Part shown: piece by piece, positions 10,510 through 30,646 of the stretch
Numbering within the stretch: the first letter of the stretch is position 1
How the letters are laid out: each line of letters opens with the position of its first letter
Source: an uncultured Methanobacteriaceae archaeon
Lineage (GTDB): Archaea > Methanobacteriota > Methanobacteria > Methanobacteriales > Methanobacteriaceae
Reading direction: 5' to 3'
DNA length: 32,000 nt
Assembly: GCA_963831915.1 (NCBI GenBank)
Contig: CAWHRV010000008.1
Coordinates: 245,788 to 277,787 of the forward strand
The notes under the pieces: generated by a model
Database searches by the model: none
Seen by the model: the letters and a program-made list of their open reading frames with translations, nothing else
What the model was told of the DNA's origin: nothing
Made by a program: the position numbers and the translations under genes

Positions 10510-10551
10510 CCATAAACCCAAAACCATGGTATGTTGTCAAAAACATTCTAT

Positions 10552-10710
<159 letters not shown>

Positions 10711-13667: not shown

Positions 13668-14804
13668 ATGAAGATACTTTTTATAGGGGCACGTCTATTT
13701 GAAGATGTAGCACCATACACAAAAAATCTTGCGATTAATAGTATTTTAACAGAATCTAACCCCGAATCTCCTAACCTTAAACTTGCAGATTCCTACCATA
13801 TTGTTTCAAGGGGGATGGATGAACCAATGCAAATTGCAATCAATGAGGAAGTTGATGGTGTCGTGCCATTAATTGGCATTGATGAACCCCTTGTAGAGAT
13901 TGCAATTATGAAAGAAAAGTTAGAAGAGGATTATGGAATACCTGTAATCGCTTCTGGTATTTCAGCTGCGTCTACATGTGCTGACAAATTTAAGGCTAAA
14001 GAATTTTTCGTTGAAAACCAGATTAAAACTCCAAAATTCTTTAAAATATCTAAAAATGATTACCATAATGTTTTACCCAAAATGGATAATCAAATGCCAA
14101 TAGTTTTGAAACAGACAAAAGGTCAGGGAGGATCAGGAGTTAATATAGCATCTTCCATAAAAGATATGGAAAAATATATTAATGAATTTGAATCTGGTAT
14201 TGCAGAAAGATTTATCGAAGGATCTGAGGTTTCAATTGAAGTATTGAGGTGGAATGGTAAATCTGTCCCATTAGTTCCAGTTTATAAAGGAGAAACCACC
14301 ATTGAAGGCATCCATCCTCTTAAGAAGATTAAAAAAGCCCCATTAGAAATAGATGGTATTAATAATTCTAAAAACAACCGGAAAATCCAAGAAATTGCTG
14401 TTAAAATTGCAGAGAATATTGGTTTAGAGGGTACTGCAGATATTGATATTATTTATGACTATGAAAATAATGAAAATAATGTAATTGAAGTTAACGCCCG
14501 ACCTAGTGGCACACGGTACATCACATGGGCTACTACGGGCATAAATATCATGCACGAACTAGTTAACATGGCTTCTGGAAAATGGAATGCATTGAAACTT
14601 AAAAAAAGTATTAAAAATTACTCTGGCATTGAGATACCGGTTGGAAATTATATTTCGCAAAAAAATAGTCAGATCATGCACGATTTTTCTGACGAAGCTT
14701 CTTGGATAATCCACGGACCTGAAAATCATCAACGAATAACTATACGTGGATCATCCATGGGAAATGCGGTTAAAACTGCAAAAAAGCTCGAAATATGGGA
14801 ATAA
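13668..14804 (+). CDS. Stand-alone ATP-grasp ligase, CarB/Ddl-like (pseudomurein cluster member)
   Basis: ATP-grasp elements: PIVLKQTKGQGGSGVNIA (Lys plus Gly-rich loop), ERFIEGSEVSIEVL, and DIDIIYD...VIEVNARPSGT. The last compares with [11 protein letters not shown] in the carB of this same window. GTGAT Shine-Dalgarno lies before the ATG. Confidence 0.8.
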   Translation: MKILFIGARLFEDVAPYTKNLAINSILTESNPESPNLKLADSYHIVSRGMDEPMQIAINEEVDGVVPLIGIDEPLVEIAIMKEKLEEDYGIPVIASGISAASTCADKFKAKEFFVENQIKTPKFFKISKNDYHNVLPKMDNQMPIVLKQTKGQGGSGVNIASSIKDMEKYINEFESGIAERFIEGSEVSIEVLRWNGKSVPLVPVYKGETTIEGIHPLKKIKKAPLEIDGINNSKNNRKIQEIAVKIAENIGLEGTADIDIIYDYENNENNVIEVNARPSGTRYITWATTGINIMHELVNMASGKWNALKLKKSIKNYSGIEIPVGNYISQKNSQIMHDFSDEASWIIHGPENHQRITIRGSSMGNAVKTAKKLEIWE

Positions 14805-14954
14805 AAAAAATTAAAAAATTCTATATAGTCCATGACAATATAGAATAAAGAAATTGATTTATTAATAGTTAAGATAGAAAGGTTCATATTAGAATAATTG
14901 TATTTAAAATCCATAAATGCAAATCATTACAATAAAACAATTATAGGTGGTATC

Positions 14955-16028
14955 TTGAGCAATATCCAGTTAGAAGTTTTCATATTCTTACTCGCATTCC
15001 TATCAACAGCGCTTTTCACCCTGTTCGTAAGGAAGGTGTTGAAATATGCAGACATCAAAGACAATCCAATAGTCACAGAACACAGCCACAAAGCAGGCAC
15101 GCCCACAATGGGAGGCCTAGCTATACTCATGGGAGTTCTTCTTCTTGCATGTGTTTATTACACAGATAAAAACCTTATATTAACCGTAATAATTATGCTG
15201 ACCGCCGGAATTGTTGGATTGATGGATGATCTAATTGGTCTTAAAACTAAGGAAATTCAAAAAGTAATAATGAATATCAGCCCTAATCCTGTGGAAATTG
15301 GCAGATTGACTCTTAAAAAGGGTGAAAATGCAAGAGTTACAACACCTAAAGCGAAAAAGGACTTGGAATATCTCCTAAAAAATAATTTAGTAGAGATAAT
15401 AGGTGAAGCCCCAATAAAAAGTGAGGTAAAGGAAAACGAAAAAATTCTGGCACAGATACTTGTTTCACTTTTCCTGATAGCTTCAGGGGCGGTTGGTGCT
15501 TCGGTATTAGGATTTAATATTGGCATATTTATAATTCCCGTAGTAATATTCTGTATAGTTGGATCAATCAATTCAGTGAATCTTATTGATGGAATGGATG
15601 GACTGGCAGCAGGAATAATTGCTATAGCCTCTGTTGCATCGGCATTATTTGCATTATCAACGGGAAATATTGGTGGAGCAGTACCATTTATAGTTCTTGC
15701 AGGAGCATGCTTCGGATTTCTTGTTTTCAATAAGTATCCCGCAACCATATTCATGGGTGATACGGGATCCTTTGCACTTGGAGCAGGTTACATGACCGCT
15801 GCATTTCTGGGCGATGTATTTTACTTTGCCGTGATTGCGATTGCTGTACCTATACTTTCTGTTGCTGTGAGCCTCTTACATAGAGCTCATGTGATTAAAC
15901 TCCCTGTAGAACCACTTCATCACACATTACACTATAAAGGATTATCAGAGAAGAAAATAGTTTTACTTTACTGGTCAGCCACCATTATTGTCTGTGCTGC
16001 AGCATTATACGGATACAGCCTACTTTAA
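14955..16028 (+). CDS. MraY-like polyprenyl-phosphate sugar-phosphate transferase (glycosyltransferase family 4)
   Basis: Polytopic membrane protein. DD motif LMDDLIGLK. NSVNLIDGMDGLAAG. FMGDTGS. PVEPLHHTLH matches the MraY HHH-region position. The longest ORF starts at TTG 14898. I prefer the in-frame TTG 14955 because AGGTGG (14944-14949) lies just upstream and TM1 begins there. Confidence 0.85.
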   Translation: MSNIQLEVFIFLLAFLSTALFTLFVRKVLKYADIKDNPIVTEHSHKAGTPTMGGLAILMGVLLLACVYYTDKNLILTVIIMLTAGIVGLMDDLIGLKTKEIQKVIMNISPNPVEIGRLTLKKGENARVTTPKAKKDLEYLLKNNLVEIIGEAPIKSEVKENEKILAQILVSLFLIASGAVGASVLGFNIGIFIIPVVIFCIVGSINSVNLIDGMDGLAAGIIAIASVASALFALSTGNIGGAVPFIVLAGACFGFLVFNKYPATIFMGDTGSFALGAGYMTAAFLGDVFYFAVIAIAVPILSVAVSLLHRAHVIKLPVEPLHHTLHYKGLSEKKIVLLYWSATIIVCAAALYGYSLL

Positions 16029-16054: not shown

Positions 16055-17551
16055 ATGAAGGATATCACAGCAGCATATTTGGCAAAAAAGGTGAATGGAA
16101 GATTAATAGGAACTGAAAAACCTATAAAAGGAATTTTTACCTTTCTAAACAGTGCTGAACCCGGAGATGTGGTTGTTAGACACTGGATTGACGGCCAAGG
16201 AGTTAAAATGGCCTCTGATAAAGGCGTTTCATGTCTTGTAACTCAAAACATCCGAGGAGATGCTATTGAAATAGCTGAAAAGCTCGAATTACCCATTATT
16301 ATAACTCCTAAAATAGAATTTGCCAATGCATTCGCATTAAAATGGGCAATAAAAAACTTTGCAAAAAATTCCATTCGTGTGGTTGTAACGGGTACAAATG
16401 GTAAATCCACAACAGCAAACATGATATACACTATATTAACAAAAGCAGGATATTCTACATACACCAATACCGATGCTAAATCTGAGTTTAATACATTAAT
16501 AGATCCTGTTATTGCAAAACAGGTCGCAGAGTTTGAAAAAGTAAATAAGAAAAAGATTCAAGCCATGGTTGTTGAGGTTTCAGAAGTTCAAGGATGGTTG
16601 GACAAATTAATGAAAGATCATGCACAACTCATGACCTCCGCAGTAGAACCTAATGTCATTGTACTGACAAATGTAGGTTTGGATCATATTGGTTTAGTTA
16701 ATTCTATCGAAGAAACCTACAATGAAATATATGGTTCATTAAAAGGAATATTCCCTGTTCAATCAGATGAAGTTGAGGATAATAAATTAAATGATGTTTA
16801 TGCTGTTTTAAATTCAGATGATCCACTTTTGAAGGACATGGGGAAACTGGTGGAAAATCAGGGCAATTTTAAACTTTTATACTATGGTAGTAAAGTAAAT
16901 GAATCATTATTCCCTGATGTATCCCTTCAATCTGAAGGTATATACTTGAAGGATAAACCATTCTTAAAAACAGAGGAACTACCATTTAAGAGTAAACATT
17001 TCATTCAAAATACAATGGGAGCAATAGGTGCTTGTTTGGCATTAAATATAGATTTAGATGTTATAAAAAATGCTGTATCATCCTATATACCCCTTAAAAG
17101 AAGGTTCACAGTGCTTGGAAAAGATCCACTAATAATTGATGATTTCGCCCATAACCCTGATGGAATAATTGCAACAATAAAGAGTGGTTCAAAGATGTGT
17201 GAAGGTGTTCTTTACATTGTATTCGCCATCAGAGGCTCAAGGGGAGAATCTATTAATCATTTAAATGCTGAGGCAGTTGTTGAAAGCCTTGAAGGTGTTG
17301 ATCATCATATTATTGTTACGAGCAGTAAAGATGTGGTTGATAAAGCAAACGTAGTAAAATCTGTAGAAAAGAATGTGGTTCTTAAAACATTGACGGAAAA
17401 TGGGTTAAAATATGTATTTGAAGAAAAACTGTATCTTGCATTGGAGTACAGTGTAAGAAATGCAAAAGAAAAAGATACTATACTTCTTCTTGGTGCCCAA
17501 GGAATGGACCCTGCCAGTGAAGCACTGGAAAAAATATACAAAGATATTTAA
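16055..17551 (+). CDS. Mur-ligase family peptide ligase, paralogue A (MurE/MurF-like N-terminal domain)
   Basis: P-loop VVVTGTNGKSTT. VVEVSE (Mg Glu). VLTNVGLDHIG. IIDDFAHNPDG. The N-terminal 90 aa (LAKKVNGRLIG...PGDVVV...GVSCLVTQ) resemble the MurE/F substrate-binding domain. Confidence 0.85.
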   Translation: MKDITAAYLAKKVNGRLIGTEKPIKGIFTFLNSAEPGDVVVRHWIDGQGVKMASDKGVSCLVTQNIRGDAIEIAEKLELPIIITPKIEFANAFALKWAIKNFAKNSIRVVVTGTNGKSTTANMIYTILTKAGYSTYTNTDAKSEFNTLIDPVIAKQVAEFEKVNKKKIQAMVVEVSEVQGWLDKLMKDHAQLMTSAVEPNVIVLTNVGLDHIGLVNSIEETYNEIYGSLKGIFPVQSDEVEDNKLNDVYAVLNSDDPLLKDMGKLVENQGNFKLLYYGSKVNESLFPDVSLQSEGIYLKDKPFLKTEELPFKSKHFIQNTMGAIGACLALNIDLDVIKNAVSSYIPLKRRFTVLGKDPLIIDDFAHNPDGIIATIKSGSKMCEGVLYIVFAIRGSRGESINHLNAEAVVESLEGVDHHIIVTSSKDVVDKANVVKSVEKNVVLKTLTENGLKYVFEEKLYLALEYSVRNAKEKDTILLLGAQGMDPASEALEKIYKDI

Positions 17552-17817: not shown

Positions 17818-19224
17818 ATGAAATGTGTAATAATTGGCGCAGGTAATGCAGGACGTCCCGCTGCAAGAATCCTTAACCACATTGGGAATGAGGTCATTTT
17901 AACAGATCAAAAACTCTTTGAAGATTTCCCACTGAAAGTTCAGAAAACCCTTGAAATAATGGAAAAAGAGGGAGTTAAACTTTTATTGAACCCCGATACT
18001 CTTTTTGAGTTTGAAAATATTGATTCAGCATACATATCACCCACCATACCTGAAAATTCACCAATCAGAGATTATTTAAAGGACAATAATGTCAAAATAC
18101 TGGACAATGAATACATTTCTACCATAATAAACGATCTTCTGGAACTGGATGTAATAGGAATTACAGGCACCCTTGGAAAAACCAGCACAACCCATATTAT
18201 ATCTGAAATATTCAAACAGGCAGGTTTCAGCGTCTGGACTTGTTCATCCAGGATGGGAAACCTTTTAAGCGAGGTTATTGTTGACGGGATCGTTAATGGG
18301 CTTCATATTAAAAATAACATTGCAATTCTTGAACTTCCACACGGAACTTCGAGGTTAATGTCTCAAGTTAATCTTAAAGTCGGTATAATAACCAACATTT
18401 ACCCTGACCATTTAGATGAATTCGATTATTCCATGGAGAAGTATGTAGCCCGTAAATTATTCATAACAAATTCTAGTGAAATTTTAGTTTCAGGAATCCA
18501 GTGCAAGGAATATATCGAAGATTTAAGGGACAATACAATTTATTATTGTACAAACAATGAGTTTTGTAATGTTAATGGAAAATTGGATAATGGAAAATTG
18601 GATATTACATATGATATACCCTCAATGAAACTAGCTGGACAATTTGAAACGCCATTTAAATTATTGGGATACTACTTTGAAAATTCCATCGCAGCTGCTG
18701 CGGCAGCAATCGCATATGGATTAGACAATAACTCCATAAAAAAGGGATTAAAAAGTTTTAAAGGAATTGCCGGCCACATGGAGTACATTGGAAATTTTAA
18801 AGGCAGACAAGTGCATTTTGATGCAGCATTTGTACCTGAAGGATTAATTAATACTCTTGAAAGCTTTCGGACTAAAGACTTGGTTGTTCTCGTTGACAAC
18901 CCAGACAGTACAAACCCAAGGGACAAGTTCAAGGTAGGAGAAGTTGTTGGAAGATATGCTAAAGTTATAATATGCAGCGGATACAATGAAACAACTAAAA
19001 AACCAGATATTGAAGCTGCAAATAAAGTTATTCAAGGAGCTCAAAATTCTAAAGCGATTAAAATCGCTGTGGAAGATATGATAACTGCTGGTAAATTATC
19101 AATTAAATATTCAAATCCAGGTTACACAATTTTACATGTTGGTCCTGGAGCCATAACCAATTATGAAGATGTTAAATTCAAAATGTTGTCCGGTATTGAG
19201 GAAGGATGTAAAAAATATGAGTAG
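17818..19224 (+). CDS. Mur-ligase family peptide ligase, paralogue B (MurD-like Rossmann N-terminus)
   Basis: N-terminal [20 protein letters not shown]-loop [34 protein letters not shown]. The DxxHNP motif is degenerate (FDAAFVPEG). Confidence 0.82.
18574..18603 (+). repeat. Perfect in-frame 15-bp tandem duplication inside ligase B
   Basis: AATGGAAAATTGGAT occurs twice back to back and encodes [10 protein letters not shown]. Confidence 0.95.
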
Positions 19225-20782
19225 TACCGAAGGAAAAAACATTAAAGAAGCTAAAACATCAACTCCCAATCCTGATGTTTACGGGGTTGTTGGTGTCTGT
19301 GGTGTGGTGGGAAACATGCTGGCGAGAATGTTAATTGACCACAACTGTAAGGTACTAGGAACAGACATAAATGGGAAGGATAACTGTGAATACATTTATA
19401 CACTACAGGACTACAATTTACCCCTCTATTTATCAGAACATCCTGAAGCGTTTTTTAAAAATTCAACATTTATCGTGCCCCCTCCAAGTCTTGGCGAAGA
19501 TTCAGAACTTTGTAAAAAAATAAAAAATTATGGATTAGATATTTTAACTGTCGATGATTGCCTTAAAAAATTCAAACCTGAAAAGCCCGTACTATGCATA
19601 ACTGGTACCAATGGTAAAACTACCACCACCACACTTTTAAAACATATATGCCGATCAGCTGGTTTAAATCCTAGTGAACATGGTTTCAGAAATTTACAGG
19701 GAAATATTGATTATATACCTCCATTACAGGCCAGATTAAATGGAGATGTGGCAGTTCTCGAGACAGGAACATTTGGAAATAGTGGAGATATAAAAAAATT
19801 GGTAGAAAGGTGCGAACCAGACTGTGGAATCCTAACCAACATTAACCCTGATCATCTGGATAAAAATCATGACTTCATGAACTACGCAAGAATTAAGGGC
19901 GAATTTGTCGATTACTTCAAAAACAAAAAATTAATAGTAAATTCAGATGATCCTACTGCATTTGGCCTTGTAGATCAAAACACTGATTTTGTTACGTTTG
20001 GAATAGATTCTGACACATTTAGTACTGTGCTAAAAAGATGTTGGTGTGGAAGGGATATCGAATTAAGTGAAACAATTACTGGTTCAGGAGTTTACAGTTG
20101 TGAATGTGGGTTAAATAGACCCGAACCAGACTTTCTTGCAACGGAAATCGATGAAACCCATGGAAGGTTTAAACTCAGAACACCCGAGAGTGTTCTGGAT
20201 GTTGAGATGAAATTAATTGGACTTCATAATGTCTACAATACCATTGGTGCCATTGCAGCTGCAAGAGAATTCTTTGAAATTCCCTATGATGATATAATCC
20301 GTGCAGTTGAAAGTTTTGAGGGGGTTCCTGGTAGAATTGAATATCTATTCAGCCAAAATGGAATGGATATAATCATTGACTACGGTCATAACCCTGCAGG
20401 AATAGAAACTGTTCTTAGGGAAATAAAAAAGGTTTATAATCATATCACCGTAGTAATTACAGTTTCTTCAGAATCTGGAGAATCTGGAGATAGGGAAATA
20501 CTCAAAAAAGCCATGGAATTAGCTGATTTCATTGTACCTGCATCCTTTGCATCGAGGATGGCTGCAGAAAAACATGAGGAATATATTTCTTCAGGAAAGA
20601 TCATATTCACAGACATATCTTTGAAGAAATTTCAAAAAGGTACACTTGGAGCAACATCAGATCAGGTATTAGAAGGCCTAAAAAAAGGTTTAGAGTGTAA
20701 TACTTCCGTTTTAGTATGTCTTGGGGAAGCTGCATTTAAATACAAAGAAAATATTATCAAATTGAATGATTTGAAGTCATAA
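19217..20782 (+). CDS. Mur-ligase family peptide ligase, paralogue C (MurC/D-like N-terminus, internal four-Cys insertion)
   Basis: N-terminal [17 protein letters not shown]-loop [44 protein letters not shown] prefer the ATG at 19217, which gives an 8-nt overlap ATGAGTAG with the ligase B stop and has GAGGAAGG upstream. The longest ORF starts at 19163. Confidence 0.85.
20471..20488 (+). repeat. In-frame 9-bp tandem duplication inside ligase C
   Basis: GAATCTGGA occurs twice and encodes ESG-ESG. Confidence 0.9.
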
Positions 20783-20913
20783 CTAATTTAGGGTCTGTTT
20801 AATATCATTACATACTATTAAATCTATTAAGATCAGATCAGACTTAAGGATCAGAATGAGATCAAAATAAATATTATAAGTGCATATTGTCAATGCACTA
20901 AATAGGTGAAAGA

Positions 20914-21348
20914 ATGTTCATAAAAATTAGGAGAGATACTTTAATAATTTTATTACTAGCCTTCATGCTCATTGTATCTGGTAGAGTCATGACTTACATG
21001 TCATATGCATCTTCCACAGATGTGGATAAAGGAGTTCAAATTTCAGGAGTTATAATAAAGGGAAACGATATAATCCCCCTTGATTCTATAAAAAATAGTT
21101 TAGCTAATGTTGGATTCAGATCAGGAAGTTATATACAGGGAGATACTTTGGTTACAAGTAAACGTAAAGTTCCCTTGAATGAAGCCATTGAAAATGCTAA
21201 ACAAGCTGCGATGCTTACAACAATACCCGGAACACAGATCACACCAATTGTTGCAGCAGATGTGCAAGTGGATAAAGCAACAGGAATAGTTACTGTAAAT
21301 GTCATTGAAGACTTTTCAAACATCAAAATTAAGGGGCTGAATACATGA
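20914..21348 (+). CDS. Bitopic membrane protein, 144 aa, with a POTRA-like ectodomain (function unknown)
   Basis: AGGTGA Shine-Dalgarno (20904-20909). N-terminal basic stretch then one hydrophobic helix (LIILLLAFMLIVSG). The remainder has a beta-alpha-alpha-beta-beta-looking pattern (ISGVIIKGNDIIPLDSIKNSL ... GIVTVNVIE). The stop overlaps the next start. Confidence 0.7.
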   Translation: MFIKIRRDTLIILLLAFMLIVSGRVMTYMSYASSTDVDKGVQISGVIIKGNDIIPLDSIKNSLANVGFRSGSYIQGDTLVTSKRKVPLNEAIENAKQAAMLTTIPGTQITPIVAADVQVDKATGIVTVNVIEDFSNIKIKGLNT

Positions 21349-22607
21349 ACCGGCCAAAATTAATGTTGTTTTTAATACTTGTATTTACCATTGCTACGGT
21401 TGTTAACACATCATCAGCCACAATGAATGTCGTGGTAATTACAGATCCCACAGGACAAGATCCTAACGGTGCAGCAGCAGGAAGTCAGTCATGGGCTGAA
21501 AACATGTTCCAGTCAACCTTCATACTATCAAAGGAAAAAAACTTCGCTGTTCTATCAGGAGGATATGGAAACGAAACACCCAGACTCGGTGCTATTGTGG
21601 AAACATTAAATAGACTTGAGTCAGGTGCTACTGCAGCGGATGCTGCATCAGCAGCCAGTGGTTTCTCTGGTATAAGGATTATGGTTGGAGGGCCAAAGAT
21701 AGGTGCTGCTGTAGGTGGTTACTTCAGTGCATATGTGGTAACAGTGGCTGCTGACAATACAATTACAGTAACTCCATATGAAAGTGGTCTGGCCACACTT
21801 CCACCGGGACAAAGGGGGGCAATAATACATTTGAGAAACACCCCAGGTAACCCACAATATGGTACAGCTGATGCTGTACGTAAAGATACAGCTATTATGA
21901 TGGGTAAAATGATAAGGGACGGTTATCCTGCCACAGAAATTGTTGGTGCGGCATTTGAAAATGTTGCCAAGAATGCTGGTGAAAAACATGGTGGGGGTGC
22001 AGTGAATCTGGTTTCCGGAATAACTACAGGGGATATGTTCACACCAACTGCATTAAATACAACCGGTTTTTCAATGGATGAACCATACAGTAAGACTTGT
22101 CCGGTTGATGGATGGAGTATTGCTTATCCTGCAGCAGAAAACTATGAAACATGTCCTAATGACGGGACTGCCCTCAAAACTGTATACGCTTATCAAGCTC
22201 TTACAAATGCAATTACAGTGACTGGAAACAGTACATCAGTAGCAGTTTATGGTAGCGATGCACCAGGAATTGCAGAAACCACACAGGAAATAGTAGTAGC
22301 CTCTGTGAAAAAACATGGCTACAGCAGTACCGAGATAGCTAAATCTATTAACAATGCAATTGGTAATGGACTGCTTGTAGGTGTTAATTACGTAGAAGCT
22401 AAGGACATTAATGTAAAGGAAAGCTCCAAAGCAGTTGGTGTTTACTATAAAGCACTGCCGGATAATAGATCATCACCACCATGGAATTTACCAATTAGTT
22501 CCTCAATTTTAGATATTTTAGGGAATATGCAGACGGCTATAGGATTGATATTAGTTATCTTGGTCCTCTTCAGAAGCACTCTAATATCTTCGTTCCTTAA
22601 AAAGTAA
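21345..22607 (+). CDS. Exported protein, 420 aa, Ala/Gly/Thr-rich with a C-terminal membrane anchor (function unknown)
   Basis: ATGA overlap with the upstream gene. Signal-like N-terminus MNRPKLMLFLILVFTIATVVNTSSA. C-terminal hydrophobic helix AIGLILVILVLF followed by basic residues. Several N-x-S/T sequons. A CPxDG...CPNDG pair provides the only two Cys residues. Confidence 0.72.
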   Translation: MNRPKLMLFLILVFTIATVVNTSSATMNVVVITDPTGQDPNGAAAGSQSWAENMFQSTFILSKEKNFAVLSGGYGNETPRLGAIVETLNRLESGATAADAASAASGFSGIRIMVGGPKIGAAVGGYFSAYVVTVAADNTITVTPYESGLATLPPGQRGAIIHLRNTPGNPQYGTADAVRKDTAIMMGKMIRDGYPATEIVGAAFENVAKNAGEKHGGGAVNLVSGITTGDMFTPTALNTTGFSMDEPYSKTCPVDGWSIAYPAAENYETCPNDGTALKTVYAYQALTNAITVTGNSTSVAVYGSDAPGIAETTQEIVVASVKKHGYSSTEIAKSINNAIGNGLLVGVNYVEAKDINVKESSKAVGVYYKALPDNRSSPPWNLPISSSILDILGNMQTAIGLILVILVLFRSTLISSFLKK

Positions 22608-22716: not shown

Positions 22717-23070
22717 ATGGCTTTAATTTTAATACGTGCTGAAGATCAGGGAAAACTATTGAATACAATTGCAGATATTGAGAGACATGCTGGACTTAAA
22801 GTTGCGGGTAAACCTCGGATAATAGATCCAAAAACTGCCGATGCAATTGCCGGGAAAATATTAAAACAAGAACTAAGGTCAAAATCAGATATAGCTGTTC
22901 TTTTACGTGTTGAAGACGACACAACCAAAAGTATAGTGCATATACGAAAAATTCATCCTCCCGCACATGTAATTGTAATTAGTGAGGAGTACAGTGAATT
23001 TAAGGAATTGGAAGAAACATTTCATAGTTTGACCTATCTTAAGGGATACTACTCCCATAAAAATAAGTGA
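22717..23070 (+). CDS. Small soluble hypothetical protein, 117 aa
   Basis: GAAGGAG Shine-Dalgarno 8 nt upstream of the ATG. No TM segment. No motif I can assign. Confidence 0.6.
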   Translation: MALILIRAEDQGKLLNTIADIERHAGLKVAGKPRIIDPKTADAIAGKILKQELRSKSDIAVLLRVEDDTTKSIVHIRKIHPPAHVIVISEEYSEFKELEETFHSLTYLKGYYSHKNK

Positions 23071-23163: not shown

Positions 23164-23640
23164 TCAATTTCTTTTTATTCTAGCTATATCTCCAATGGTG
23201 GCTCCTCTTACCTTTGAGTGGCCAGTTTCATCTGCCGAAATATCATCTGATTTTTCAATAAGTGCAACGTGCATTATTTTCTCGATCTTCCTTGCAAGCT
23301 TCAGATCTGGCACCATTTTACCAGATTCTATTCTGTTAACTACTGATGCTTTTTCATAGATTTTCTCTCCAAGTTCTTCACGAGACCAACCTTTCTTCTC
23401 TCTTGCCTGTCTCACGATTTCATTATAATTTTCTACAACTTCTTCAACAGGCTCTATTGGTCTTTGAATTCTTTTGGTTACCTTTCCACCCCTTGGAGCT
23501 CCTGGTCTTTTGGGTTTGGGGGGCTCCCGCTGAACTTTACCAAATTTTGAGCACTCTTTACAAGTAAGCATGATTGAACCATCGACTTTAGTCTTCAGTG
23601 GTTCTTCTACTAATTTTTTTCCACATATCTCGCATCTCAT
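23164..23640 (-). CDS. Archaeal multiprotein-bridging factor 1 (MBF1): N-terminal zinc ribbon plus C-terminal HTH
   Basis: CEICGKK...CKEC zinc ribbon. Basic linker. Cro/C1-type HTH (REKKGWSREELGEKIYEKASVVNRIESGK). Confidence 0.85.
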   Translation of the reverse strand: MRCEICGKKLVEEPLKTKVDGSIMLTCKECSKFGKVQREPPKPKRPGAPRGGKVTKRIQRPIEPVEEVVENYNEIVRQAREKKGWSREELGEKIYEKASVVNRIESGKMVPDLKLARKIEKIMHVALIEKSDDISADETGHSKVRGATIGDIARIKRN

Positions 23641-29339: not shown

Positions 29340-29563
29340 TTTTTTAGATAAAAGTTGAAGATTATAAATAATTCTATTATGGATATCCGAAATAATCTAA
29401 TTAATAAACTAAGTAGAATAAACTAACTGATCAAGATCATGAATTATTGGTACTTGATAAAAAATCTAATTAAAGATCAGATATAAATTTAGGATGATTA
29501 AGGTCTAAGTTCTAGATCAACTAACTAAGGATTTTGATTACAATTAATTTAACCGGTGATGAA

Positions 29564-30646
29564 ATGCTAAAAGAGGCTAAATTAGCTTTAGAAGATGGTA
29601 CAATACTTAAAGGAGAAGGATTCGGTTTTGAAACCATTAAAACAGGAGAAGTGGTTTTTGCTACTGGAATGACCGGATACGTAGAATCACTTACAGATCC
29701 ATCTTACAAAGGTCAAATTCTAATGTCAACCTATCCACTGCAAGGTAATTATGGAATATCCAGGGAATGGTTCCAATCAGATGGAATAAAAGCAGAAGGA
29801 TTTATTGTAAGGGAACAAAACAGTCACCCCTCACATAGACTCTCAAAAGAAAATTTACCCGAGTTCTTAGAGGAATATAAAATACCAGGAATAAGTGGAA
29901 TTGACACCAGATTTTTAACCCTTAAGATCAGGCGGCATGGGGCAATGAAAGGTGCACTTTCAACAGAAGAAATTGACGATGAAGAACTTTTAAAACTGGC
30001 TGTTGAACAACCAAGTATTAGTGAAATCGATCTGGTGGATGAAGTATCTGTAAAAAAACCACATATTATAGGGGAAGATTATAAACACAGAGCTGTGATC
30101 CTTGATTGCGGTATAAAACAGAATAGTATAAATGCGCTCTTAAAAAGAGAGATAGGCGTTGTGGTTTTACCGTATAAAACTGACTATAAAAATATTTTAG
30201 ATTATGACCCTGAAGCCGTGCTTGTTTCAAGCGGGCCTGGAGATCCTACAAGGATAAAAGAAGCTGCAAACACAGTTAAAAATCTATCTGAAAAACTTCC
30301 AATCTTTGGTATATGTCTGGGACAACAGATCATATCCCTTGCTTTCGGTGCAAAGATATACAAAATGAAGTTCGGACACAGGGGAATAAATCAACCTGTA
30401 AAAGATCTTAAGACAGGCAAAGTATCAATAACATCCCAGAACCATGGTTTTACAATTGATTCAAATTCCTGTAGTGATCTACCCATAAAGGTTACTCAAA
30501 TAAACTTGAATGACGGCACTGCTGAAGGATTGGAACACGAAGAACTTCCTATTTATAGTGTGCAGTATCATCCAGAGGCAGGACCAGGACCTCACGATTC
30601 TGACCATTACTTCGACAACTTCCTTAAAACAATGCAGAACTACTAG
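29564..30646 (+). CDS. carA: Carbamoyl-phosphate synthase small (glutaminase) subunit
   Basis: [18 protein letters not shown]-terminus. [10 protein letters not shown]. GATase triad region FGICLGQQ and [19 protein letters not shown] lies just before ATG 29564. The longest ORF starts at TTG 29534. Confidence 0.92.

Follow-up and report, generated by a model that had tools for sequence, protein, structure and literature searches.

Mfer763, a conserved protein of the pseudomurein gene cluster, is predicted to carry a POTRA-like domain outside the cell

The gene at positions 20914..21348 (+) of a 32,000-nucleotide stretch of DNA from an uncultured Methanobacteriaceae archaeon (the whole stretch is referred to here as the window) encodes a 144-amino-acid member of the Mfer763 family. 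The protein is oriented for export across the cytoplasmic membrane, and the predicted fold of its exported part resembles that of POTRA domains. The gene was found paired with a homologue of Mfer764 at every locus compared. Both the Mfer763 gene and its link to pseudomurein were known before; the assignment of a POTRA-like fold appears to be new. A preliminary description of the window had read the protein as FtsQ/DivIB-like, with one membrane helix and a POTRA-like domain encoded next to Mur ligase genes, a reading that would extend a proposed common ancestry of murein and pseudomurein machinery to a scaffold or division component. The fold, as a prediction, and the gene neighbourhood were upheld by our analysis, and identity with FtsQ/DivIB was not.

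The names Mfer763 and Mfer764 trace back to Subedi et al. 2021 (PMC10117817), where the pair was located downstream of pMurE and had no detectable homology. In Lupo et al. 2025 (PMC11915815) the same pair corresponds to OG0001162 and OG0001472, is described as "devoid of known domains" and always lies downstream of pMurE. Both papers rank the Mfer763 family as conserved in, and specific to, pseudomurein archaea (PMC10117817, PMC11915815). Mfer763 and Mfer764 are the two always-present genes of the cluster that were left without homology or domain by both comparative studies. Our search of full-text literature for POTRA or FtsQ together with pseudomurein, and for POTRA together with genera of Methanobacteriales, retrieved no paper making the link.

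The Mfer763 gene, its family and its neighbourhood

The open reading frame starts with ATG and is present in the list of reading frames for the window; the three peptides quoted from it in the preliminary description were all found verbatim in the translation. The protein matched the NCBIfam model of the Mfer763 family, NF053641, with an E value of 3.5e-71 and 237.7 bits (curated cutoff 170), and the alignment spanned residues 1-137 on model positions 1-137. It is a member without differences of the family described as NF053641, OG0001162 and the 'Con Pro' gene of Gene Cluster 2, and its gene holds the place typical of the family in Gene Cluster 2 / cluster A, with a pMurE-type ligase gene on one side and the Mfer764 gene on the other. 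A word-indexed search returned 580 homologues; they carried either no name or the name 'hypothetical' and came from Methanobacteriales or Methanopyrus, and searches seeded with Methanobrevibacter and Methanopyrus members recovered the corresponding clades. The organisms named among the matches were Methanobacterium, Methanobrevibacter and Methanopyrus. Exhaustive phmmer searching of 1.84 billion cluster representatives gave 27 clusters, each of them made up of Mfer763 members or fragments, and no bacterial relative; the most distant full-length cluster was that of Methanopyrus, at 38% identity. Judged by these searches, the family is restricted to pseudomurein archaea. A homologue with 71% identity, accompanied by a full pseudomurein cluster, was found in a MAG labelled Methanomicrobiales (L044); either its taxonomic label or its binning is probably wrong.

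Codons were compared across 80 orthologues. Synonymous changes were found in 38% of the first 34 codons and in 37% of the codons of the domain, while non-synonymous changes were found in 12% and 25%, respectively. Among changed codons, the non-synonymous share was 0.41 for the domain and 0.23 for the N-terminal segment. This codon pattern shows the gene to be under purifying selection, which appears strongest at the N-terminus. A chance open reading frame is ruled out because of this selection and the 580 homologues.

We regard the start codon as fixed because a GGTGA motif recurs 5-9 nt upstream of it in nearly all of the 80 orthologous loci. In the window this motif, which is Shine-Dalgarno-like, occupies 20905-20909 (+) and is separated from the ATG by 4 nt; it closes a putative promoter and leader (20870..20909, +) that was read from the sequence. 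The spacer ahead of the gene (20783-20913) is 131 nt long and AT-rich, and carries a TATA-like sequence, AATATTATAA, at 20870-20879 (+), together with a perfect 6-bp palindrome, GTGCAT/ATGCAC, at 20880-20885 and 20893-20898. Both elements were kept only in the closest relatives (L001-L020), and in other species there is almost no gap between the Mur ligase gene and the Mfer763 gene. Because of this limited distribution and the nearly gapless arrangement elsewhere, the box and the palindrome suggest a clade-specific internal promoter or operator.

As the preliminary description had stated, the gene stands next to Mur ligase genes. Three of them lie upstream on the same strand, at 16055-17551, 17818-19224 and 19163-20782 (+), and were matched by the Pfam models Mur_ligase_M/C with E values of 2.9e-29, 4.5e-17 and 2.3e-18. 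The second and third of these reading frames overlap by 62 nt as listed, and the third ligase probably starts at a later ATG. Farther upstream are genes for an MraY-family transferase (14898-16028, +) and a Ddl-like ATP-grasp protein (13668-14804, +). These two were matched by NF053643 and NF053644, the NCBIfam titles of which name pseudomurein biosynthesis. The placement of the Mfer763 gene after Mur, MraY and Ddl-like genes is kept from Methanobacterium to Methanopyrus, where the order is Mur ligase, ATP-grasp, MraY-like, Mur ligase, a 151-aa protein and a 416-aa protein. In 81 of 81 loci, Methanopyrus included, a Mur ligase gene was located directly before the Mfer763 gene and a Mfer764 homologue directly after it on the same strand. 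The junction between the latter two measured mostly -14 to +30 nt across loci; in the window, stop and start codons overlap as ATGA.

The pair is adjoined in the window by a DUF356 gene (22717-23070, +) and an aMBF1 gene (23164-23640, -), and this synteny was seen in most Methanobacteriaceae loci and not in Methanopyrus. A polytopic neighbour of 369 aa in Methanopyrus has no counterpart in the window, where the 370-aa reading frame at 29534-30646 is carA. Two tRNA-Gly genes with GCC and TCC anticodons were found 1 nt apart at 10551-10702.

Predicted fold of the ectodomain

The structure of the protein was predicted by AlphaFold2 from an alignment of 62 sequences from Methanobacterium, Methanobrevibacter and Methanopyrus, of low effective diversity (hhalign Neff 2.2). 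The best model had a mean pLDDT of 83, with about 90 over residues 41-135 (88-94 over 42-133), and a pTM of 0.62. All five models agreed, their mean pLDDT ranging from 80.9 to 83.4. Beyond the N-terminal helix, the ectodomain (aa 42-133; 21037..21312, +) is predicted to consist of beta1 (45-49), alpha1 (56-65), alpha2 (88-100), beta2 (112-119) and beta3 (125-132). The modelled order would thus be beta-alpha-(hairpin insert)-alpha-beta-beta, that is, the order of POTRA domains, in which two helices lie against a three-stranded sheet, plus a hairpin between the two helices.

The insert between alpha1 and alpha2, GFRSGSYIQGDTLVTSKRKVP (aa 67-87; 21112..21174, +), was modelled with short strands at 72-75, 78-80 and 85-87. 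Invariant or near-invariant within it are G67, R69, G71, S72, I74, G76, L79, T81 and R84. Together with an IPGT loop, GFRSGSYIQGDTLVTSKRKVP is the most conserved element of the ectodomain, and this conservation marks the two as a putative family-specific binding surface absent from canonical POTRAs.

When the model was compared with PDB structures by Foldseek, the first-ranked match was FtsQ in the FtsBLQ complex (E 2.8e-3, probability 1.0), aligned over 126 columns including both helix and domain at an rmsd of 9.1 A. The next 49 matches were mostly POTRA domains of BamA, TamA, CdiB, Sam50 and Omp85, with probabilities mostly of 0.6-1.0, and the best fits of Omp85 type extended over 93-99 columns at 2.7-3.4 A rmsd, the closest in the list over 93-97 columns at 2.7-3.2 A. 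The exceptions were a few Legionella Dot/Icm/DotD chains, and secretin N0/DotD-like or ring-building folds were rejected as candidates since they gave only such low-probability matches (0.12-0.16). No match in the PDB reached E <= 1e-3, and TM-scores normalised to the full query were only 0.35-0.41. In a control search of BFVD (viral structures), the best E value was 0.15 and the folds were mixed, a result weaker than the POTRA matches in the PDB. The POTRA-like domain named in the preliminary description is in this way borne out at the level of a predicted structure: the model has the beta-alpha-alpha-beta-beta elements, and its matches are mostly POTRA and stand above the BFVD background.

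Sequence comparison gave a shorter signal. With a Pfam scan of the window protein at E values up to 1, neither a POTRA model nor any other domain was found. Among the 62 family members, no Pfam domain was significant; PF07244 was touched by two at E 0.26, below threshold; PF08478 matched none even at E 10, and neither did PF08479. The gathering scores of PF08478 and PF07244, the two Pfam families against which the preliminary description proposed to check the protein, were reached neither by the window protein nor by the 62 members. When the family profile was compared with all PDB sequences, three matches appeared at E values up to 10, and all three were BamA POTRA constructs. The best was BamA of H. 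influenzae (E 2e-4), in which ISGVIVKGNDIVPVDSIRSNVAAAGLRSGSVI was aligned with ISDVKIKGNSIIPTEALKQNLDANGFKVGDVL. This alignment covers strand 1, helix 1 and the subsequent glycine loop of POTRA2, with beta1 and alpha1 in register. The match was repeated with a profile of Methanobacterium sequences only (E 4e-4) and one of Methanobrevibacter sequences only (E 2e-3), and a five-sequence profile of Methanopyrus only gave no BamA match among the PDB sequences. With hhalign, the same POTRA2 segment was found in E. coli BamA (E 0.0025, probability 12%). With hmmsearch, E. coli BamA gave 11.9 bits for POTRA2 in isolation and 7.2 bits for its complete N-terminal region, a score on a par with the top one of 2000 shuffles (7.0). 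The POTRA signal in the sequence is therefore a motif of 32-44 residues, seen mainly with one BamA, that of H. influenzae. We consider this short, borderline-significant motif of BamA type to be compatible with distant homology, which it does not prove.

With the POTRA domains of the Omp85 family (BamA, TamA, Sam50, TpsB/CdiB; PF07244), Mfer763 shares the order of elements. With BamA POTRA2 it also shares the pattern I-x-G-V-x-[IV]-K-G-N-x-[IV]-[IV]-P-x-x-x-[IL]-x-x-x-[ILV]-x-x-x-G-F-[RK]-x-G. The start of the insert (GFRxGxxI) aligns with the loop G-F-K-V-G-D-V-L of BamA POTRA2, and the remainder of the insert has no counterpart in the aligned BamA. Mfer763 differs from Omp85 and TpsB proteins in being a single domain with nothing after it and no 16-stranded outer-membrane beta-barrel, and it belongs to a monoderm archaeon. 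It differs from Omp85 POTRAs also in its extra conserved hairpin between the helices and in scoring below the Pfam thresholds.

The N-terminal helix and relation to FtsQ/DivIB

The N-terminal membrane segment comprises aa 1-34 (20914..21015, +), as seen from hydropathy and from a helix at residues 7-33 in the AlphaFold2 model. Residues 9-23 form the sole strongly hydrophobic segment, with K4, R6 and R7 ahead of it. More precisely, a basic n-region, MFIKIRRD, is followed by a 15-residue hydrophobic core (T9-G23), by R24 and by SYA|SS, with small residues at -3 and -1. The small-x-small site is conserved, as SYA|S and, in Methanopyrus, as AWA|A. Published SignalP results for four orthologues gave Sec/SPI with 0 TM, and Tat/SPI was predicted for Methanopyrus (Lupo supplement, PMC11915815). 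The positive charges before the helix and these published predictions place the ectodomain outside the cell, as the preliminary description had held, and not in the cytoplasm. The single transmembrane helix that it named may instead be a cleaved signal peptide: there is one hydrophobic helix with the N-terminus inside, and the published SignalP results predict its cleavage. The pair R6-R7 (20929-20934) is invariant or near-invariant, and its context in Methanopyrus (L081) is SRRNLV. A class III signal, as in archaeal type IV pilins, was considered and rejected, since the hydrophobic stretch is not preceded by a G/A cleavage motif and the structural matches include no pilins.

The conservation of the helix is unusual for a disposable targeting peptide. 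Over residues 1-23 of Mfer763 the top-residue frequency was 0.90 and 0.83, and for the elements of the ectodomain it was 0.60-0.82; in Mfer764 it was 0.38 for the signal peptide and 0.76 for the C-terminal helix. Because the presumed signal is the best-conserved part of Mfer763 and the signal peptide of Mfer764 is poorly conserved, the comparison favours a retained anchor, as far as conservation can indicate one. On the opposite reading, the helix directs export by Sec (or Tat) and is then removed, and a soluble protein of about 112 aa is released into the wall space. There it would serve Mfer764 as a small subunit or chaperone, or would bind pseudomurein or its precursor, and its likeness to POTRA would be a convergence upon a simple alpha/beta fold. 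The published SignalP calls agree with cleavage, as do the 15-residue core followed by G-R and the conserved SYA|S (AWA|A in Methanopyrus). Convergence would accord with the short and marginal sequence link to POTRA, and with the fact that the most conserved element of the ectodomain is a non-canonical insert with R69, K83 and R84. However, a cleaved signal would here be conserved better than any other segment and have the smallest share of non-synonymous changes, next to a gene whose signal peptide shows the usual poor conservation. Convergence would lead one to expect a mix of small alpha/beta folds in the Foldseek list, which was instead mostly POTRA. We regard release of a soluble protein with a convergent fold as doubtful, and as the likeliest of the alternatives to our main reading.

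Retention of the helix as an anchor would bring Mfer763 closer to FtsQ/DivIB. Both have a basic N-terminus, a single hydrophobic helix and a POTRA-type domain outside the membrane, FtsQ is the best structural match, and the gene follows genes for cell-wall precursors, as E. coli ftsQ follows ddlB. FtsQ/DivIB proteins are composed of Pfam POTRA_1 (PF08478) plus FtsQ_DivIB_C (PF03799), the latter binding FtsB/FtsL. It could be supposed that Mfer763 is a genuine FtsQ/DivIB homologue that has diverged strongly and been shortened, that was acquired or inherited along with Mur genes derived from a dcw cluster, and that, as a bitopic scaffold at the septum, couples pseudomurein synthesis to the FtsZ/SepF ring. 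Helix and domain together were aligned with FtsQ over the 126 columns, the gene lies after ddl-like and mur genes, and the conserved N-terminal helix hints at a retained anchor. A bacterial origin of archaeal Mur ligases is reported by Lupo et al. (PMC11915815).

Several specific comparisons speak against such a truncated FtsQ. Mfer763 ends about 10-11 residues past the last POTRA strand and gave no Pfam match, so that the beta-domain of FtsQ (PF03799) is absent, and its 144 aa compare with 276 aa in E. coli FtsQ. It has no sequence or profile similarity to FtsQ: with hhalign, E. coli FtsQ was matched only at E 0.51 and in an unrelated segment, with hmmsearch the POTRA region of E. coli FtsQ scored 0.1 bits, and PF08478 was found in 0 of the 62 members. 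The structural alignment has the high rmsd of 9.1 A, the sequence signal that does exist is of the BamA type of POTRA, and the helix is possibly cleaved. The partners FtsB and FtsL are reported to be absent here, and PSI-BLAST searches of these archaea are reported to have returned neither FtsQ nor FtsL nor FtsW (PMC10117817). Identity with FtsQ/DivIB, as implied by the preliminary description, is not supported by these comparisons, and we consider a truncated FtsQ improbable. Shared ancestry with the bacterial division scaffold is treated here as a hypothesis because this identity found no support and the helix may be cleaved.

That the fold prediction is mistaken or has been read too far, and that fold and function are in fact unrelated to POTRA, is more improbable still: the 62 sequences of low diversity (Neff 2.2), the pTM of 0.62 and the want of a Foldseek match at E <= 1e-3 would allow it, but the five models agree with a pLDDT of about 90 over the domain, an independent search with sequences only found the same domain family with beta1-alpha1 in register, and the BFVD background was clearly weaker.

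Mfer764 and a proposed role in late wall assembly

The Mfer764-family gene (21345..22607, +; NCBIfam NF053642, E 6.6e-210) encodes 420 aa, which begin with a signal peptide, continue into an extensive extracellular portion and include a conserved transmembrane helix at the C-terminus. A comparison of the Mfer764 profile with Pfam and with PDB sequences gave nothing beyond weak zinc-ribbon matches in a few members, and a single-sequence AlphaFold2 model had a pLDDT of 41 and was unusable. At aa ~251-275 (window ~22095-22170) Mfer764 has a CPxxGW...CPxxG pair, of which the window protein keeps two cysteines (CPVDGW..CPNDG). The Methanopyrus and Methanobrevibacter proteins (L081, L079) have a four-cysteine, zinc-ribbon-like CPKCGW..CPVCG. 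A zinc ribbon is unusual in an extracellular protein. The C-terminus (22470-22607) is composed of PPWNLPISSS, a conserved hydrophobic helix with invariant G393, G400 and R410, and a basic tail with KK as its last residues. The tripartite arrangement resembles a sortase/archaeosortase-type sorting signal, and Lupo et al. (PMC11915815) report a pseudomurein-specific sortase E; simple anchoring in the membrane would explain the arrangement just as well.

Because both helices are strongly conserved, the N-terminal helix of Mfer763 and the C-terminal helix of Mfer764 are suggested to pair in the membrane. We also infer from synteny that the two proteins bind each other: Mfer764 is chosen as the likeliest partner because its gene is invariably adjacent and the junctions are tight or overlapping. 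The pair closes the operon for synthesis of the lipid-linked pseudomurein precursor.

As established for FtsQ, BamA and TpsB, POTRA domains bind other proteins, typically through beta-strand augmentation, and do not act as catalysts. By analogy, we propose that Mfer763 is a POTRA-like adaptor which binds Mfer764 and places it at the membrane surface for late wall assembly, a proposal to which we give about an even chance. Mfer763 would be exported over the cytoplasmic membrane, where its helix may be retained as an anchor, and would expose a POTRA-like ectodomain of about 95 residues with the conserved hairpin insert. Like the POTRA domains of FtsQ, BamA and TpsB, it would act as a protein-binding adaptor and not as an enzyme. 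Its likeliest partner would be the presumably co-transcribed, membrane-anchored extracellular Mfer764, and other exported wall enzymes may be bound as well. The two proteins may form a membrane-proximal complex for late, extracellular assembly of pseudomurein. Candidate steps are the handling of precursor on its lipid carrier, its polymerisation and its insertion into the wall, and the complex may work at the division site.

A bolder reading, in which Mfer763 genuinely descends from FtsQ/DivIB in minimal form and was carried along with the Mur, MraY and Ddl-like genes, and in which Mfer764 replaces the beta-domain and FtsB/FtsL, appears to us unlikely. If it were true, Mfer763 would supply the connection that is missing between septal synthesis of pseudomurein and the FtsZ/SepF ring, and the shared ancestry of murein and pseudomurein would reach from cytoplasmic enzymes to an extracytoplasmic division scaffold.

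To our knowledge, no proteins have been assigned to the extracellular steps of pseudomurein synthesis or to their coupling with cell division. The POTRA-like assignment, which draws on prediction and weak statistics, makes the conserved Mfer763 a candidate protein-binding scaffold and offers a first functional handle on it. POTRA domains are regarded, as far as we know, as a module of bacteria and organelles. Their presence in an archaeon, linked to a wall-synthesis gene cluster that is in part of bacterial origin, would bear on how that cluster was assembled.
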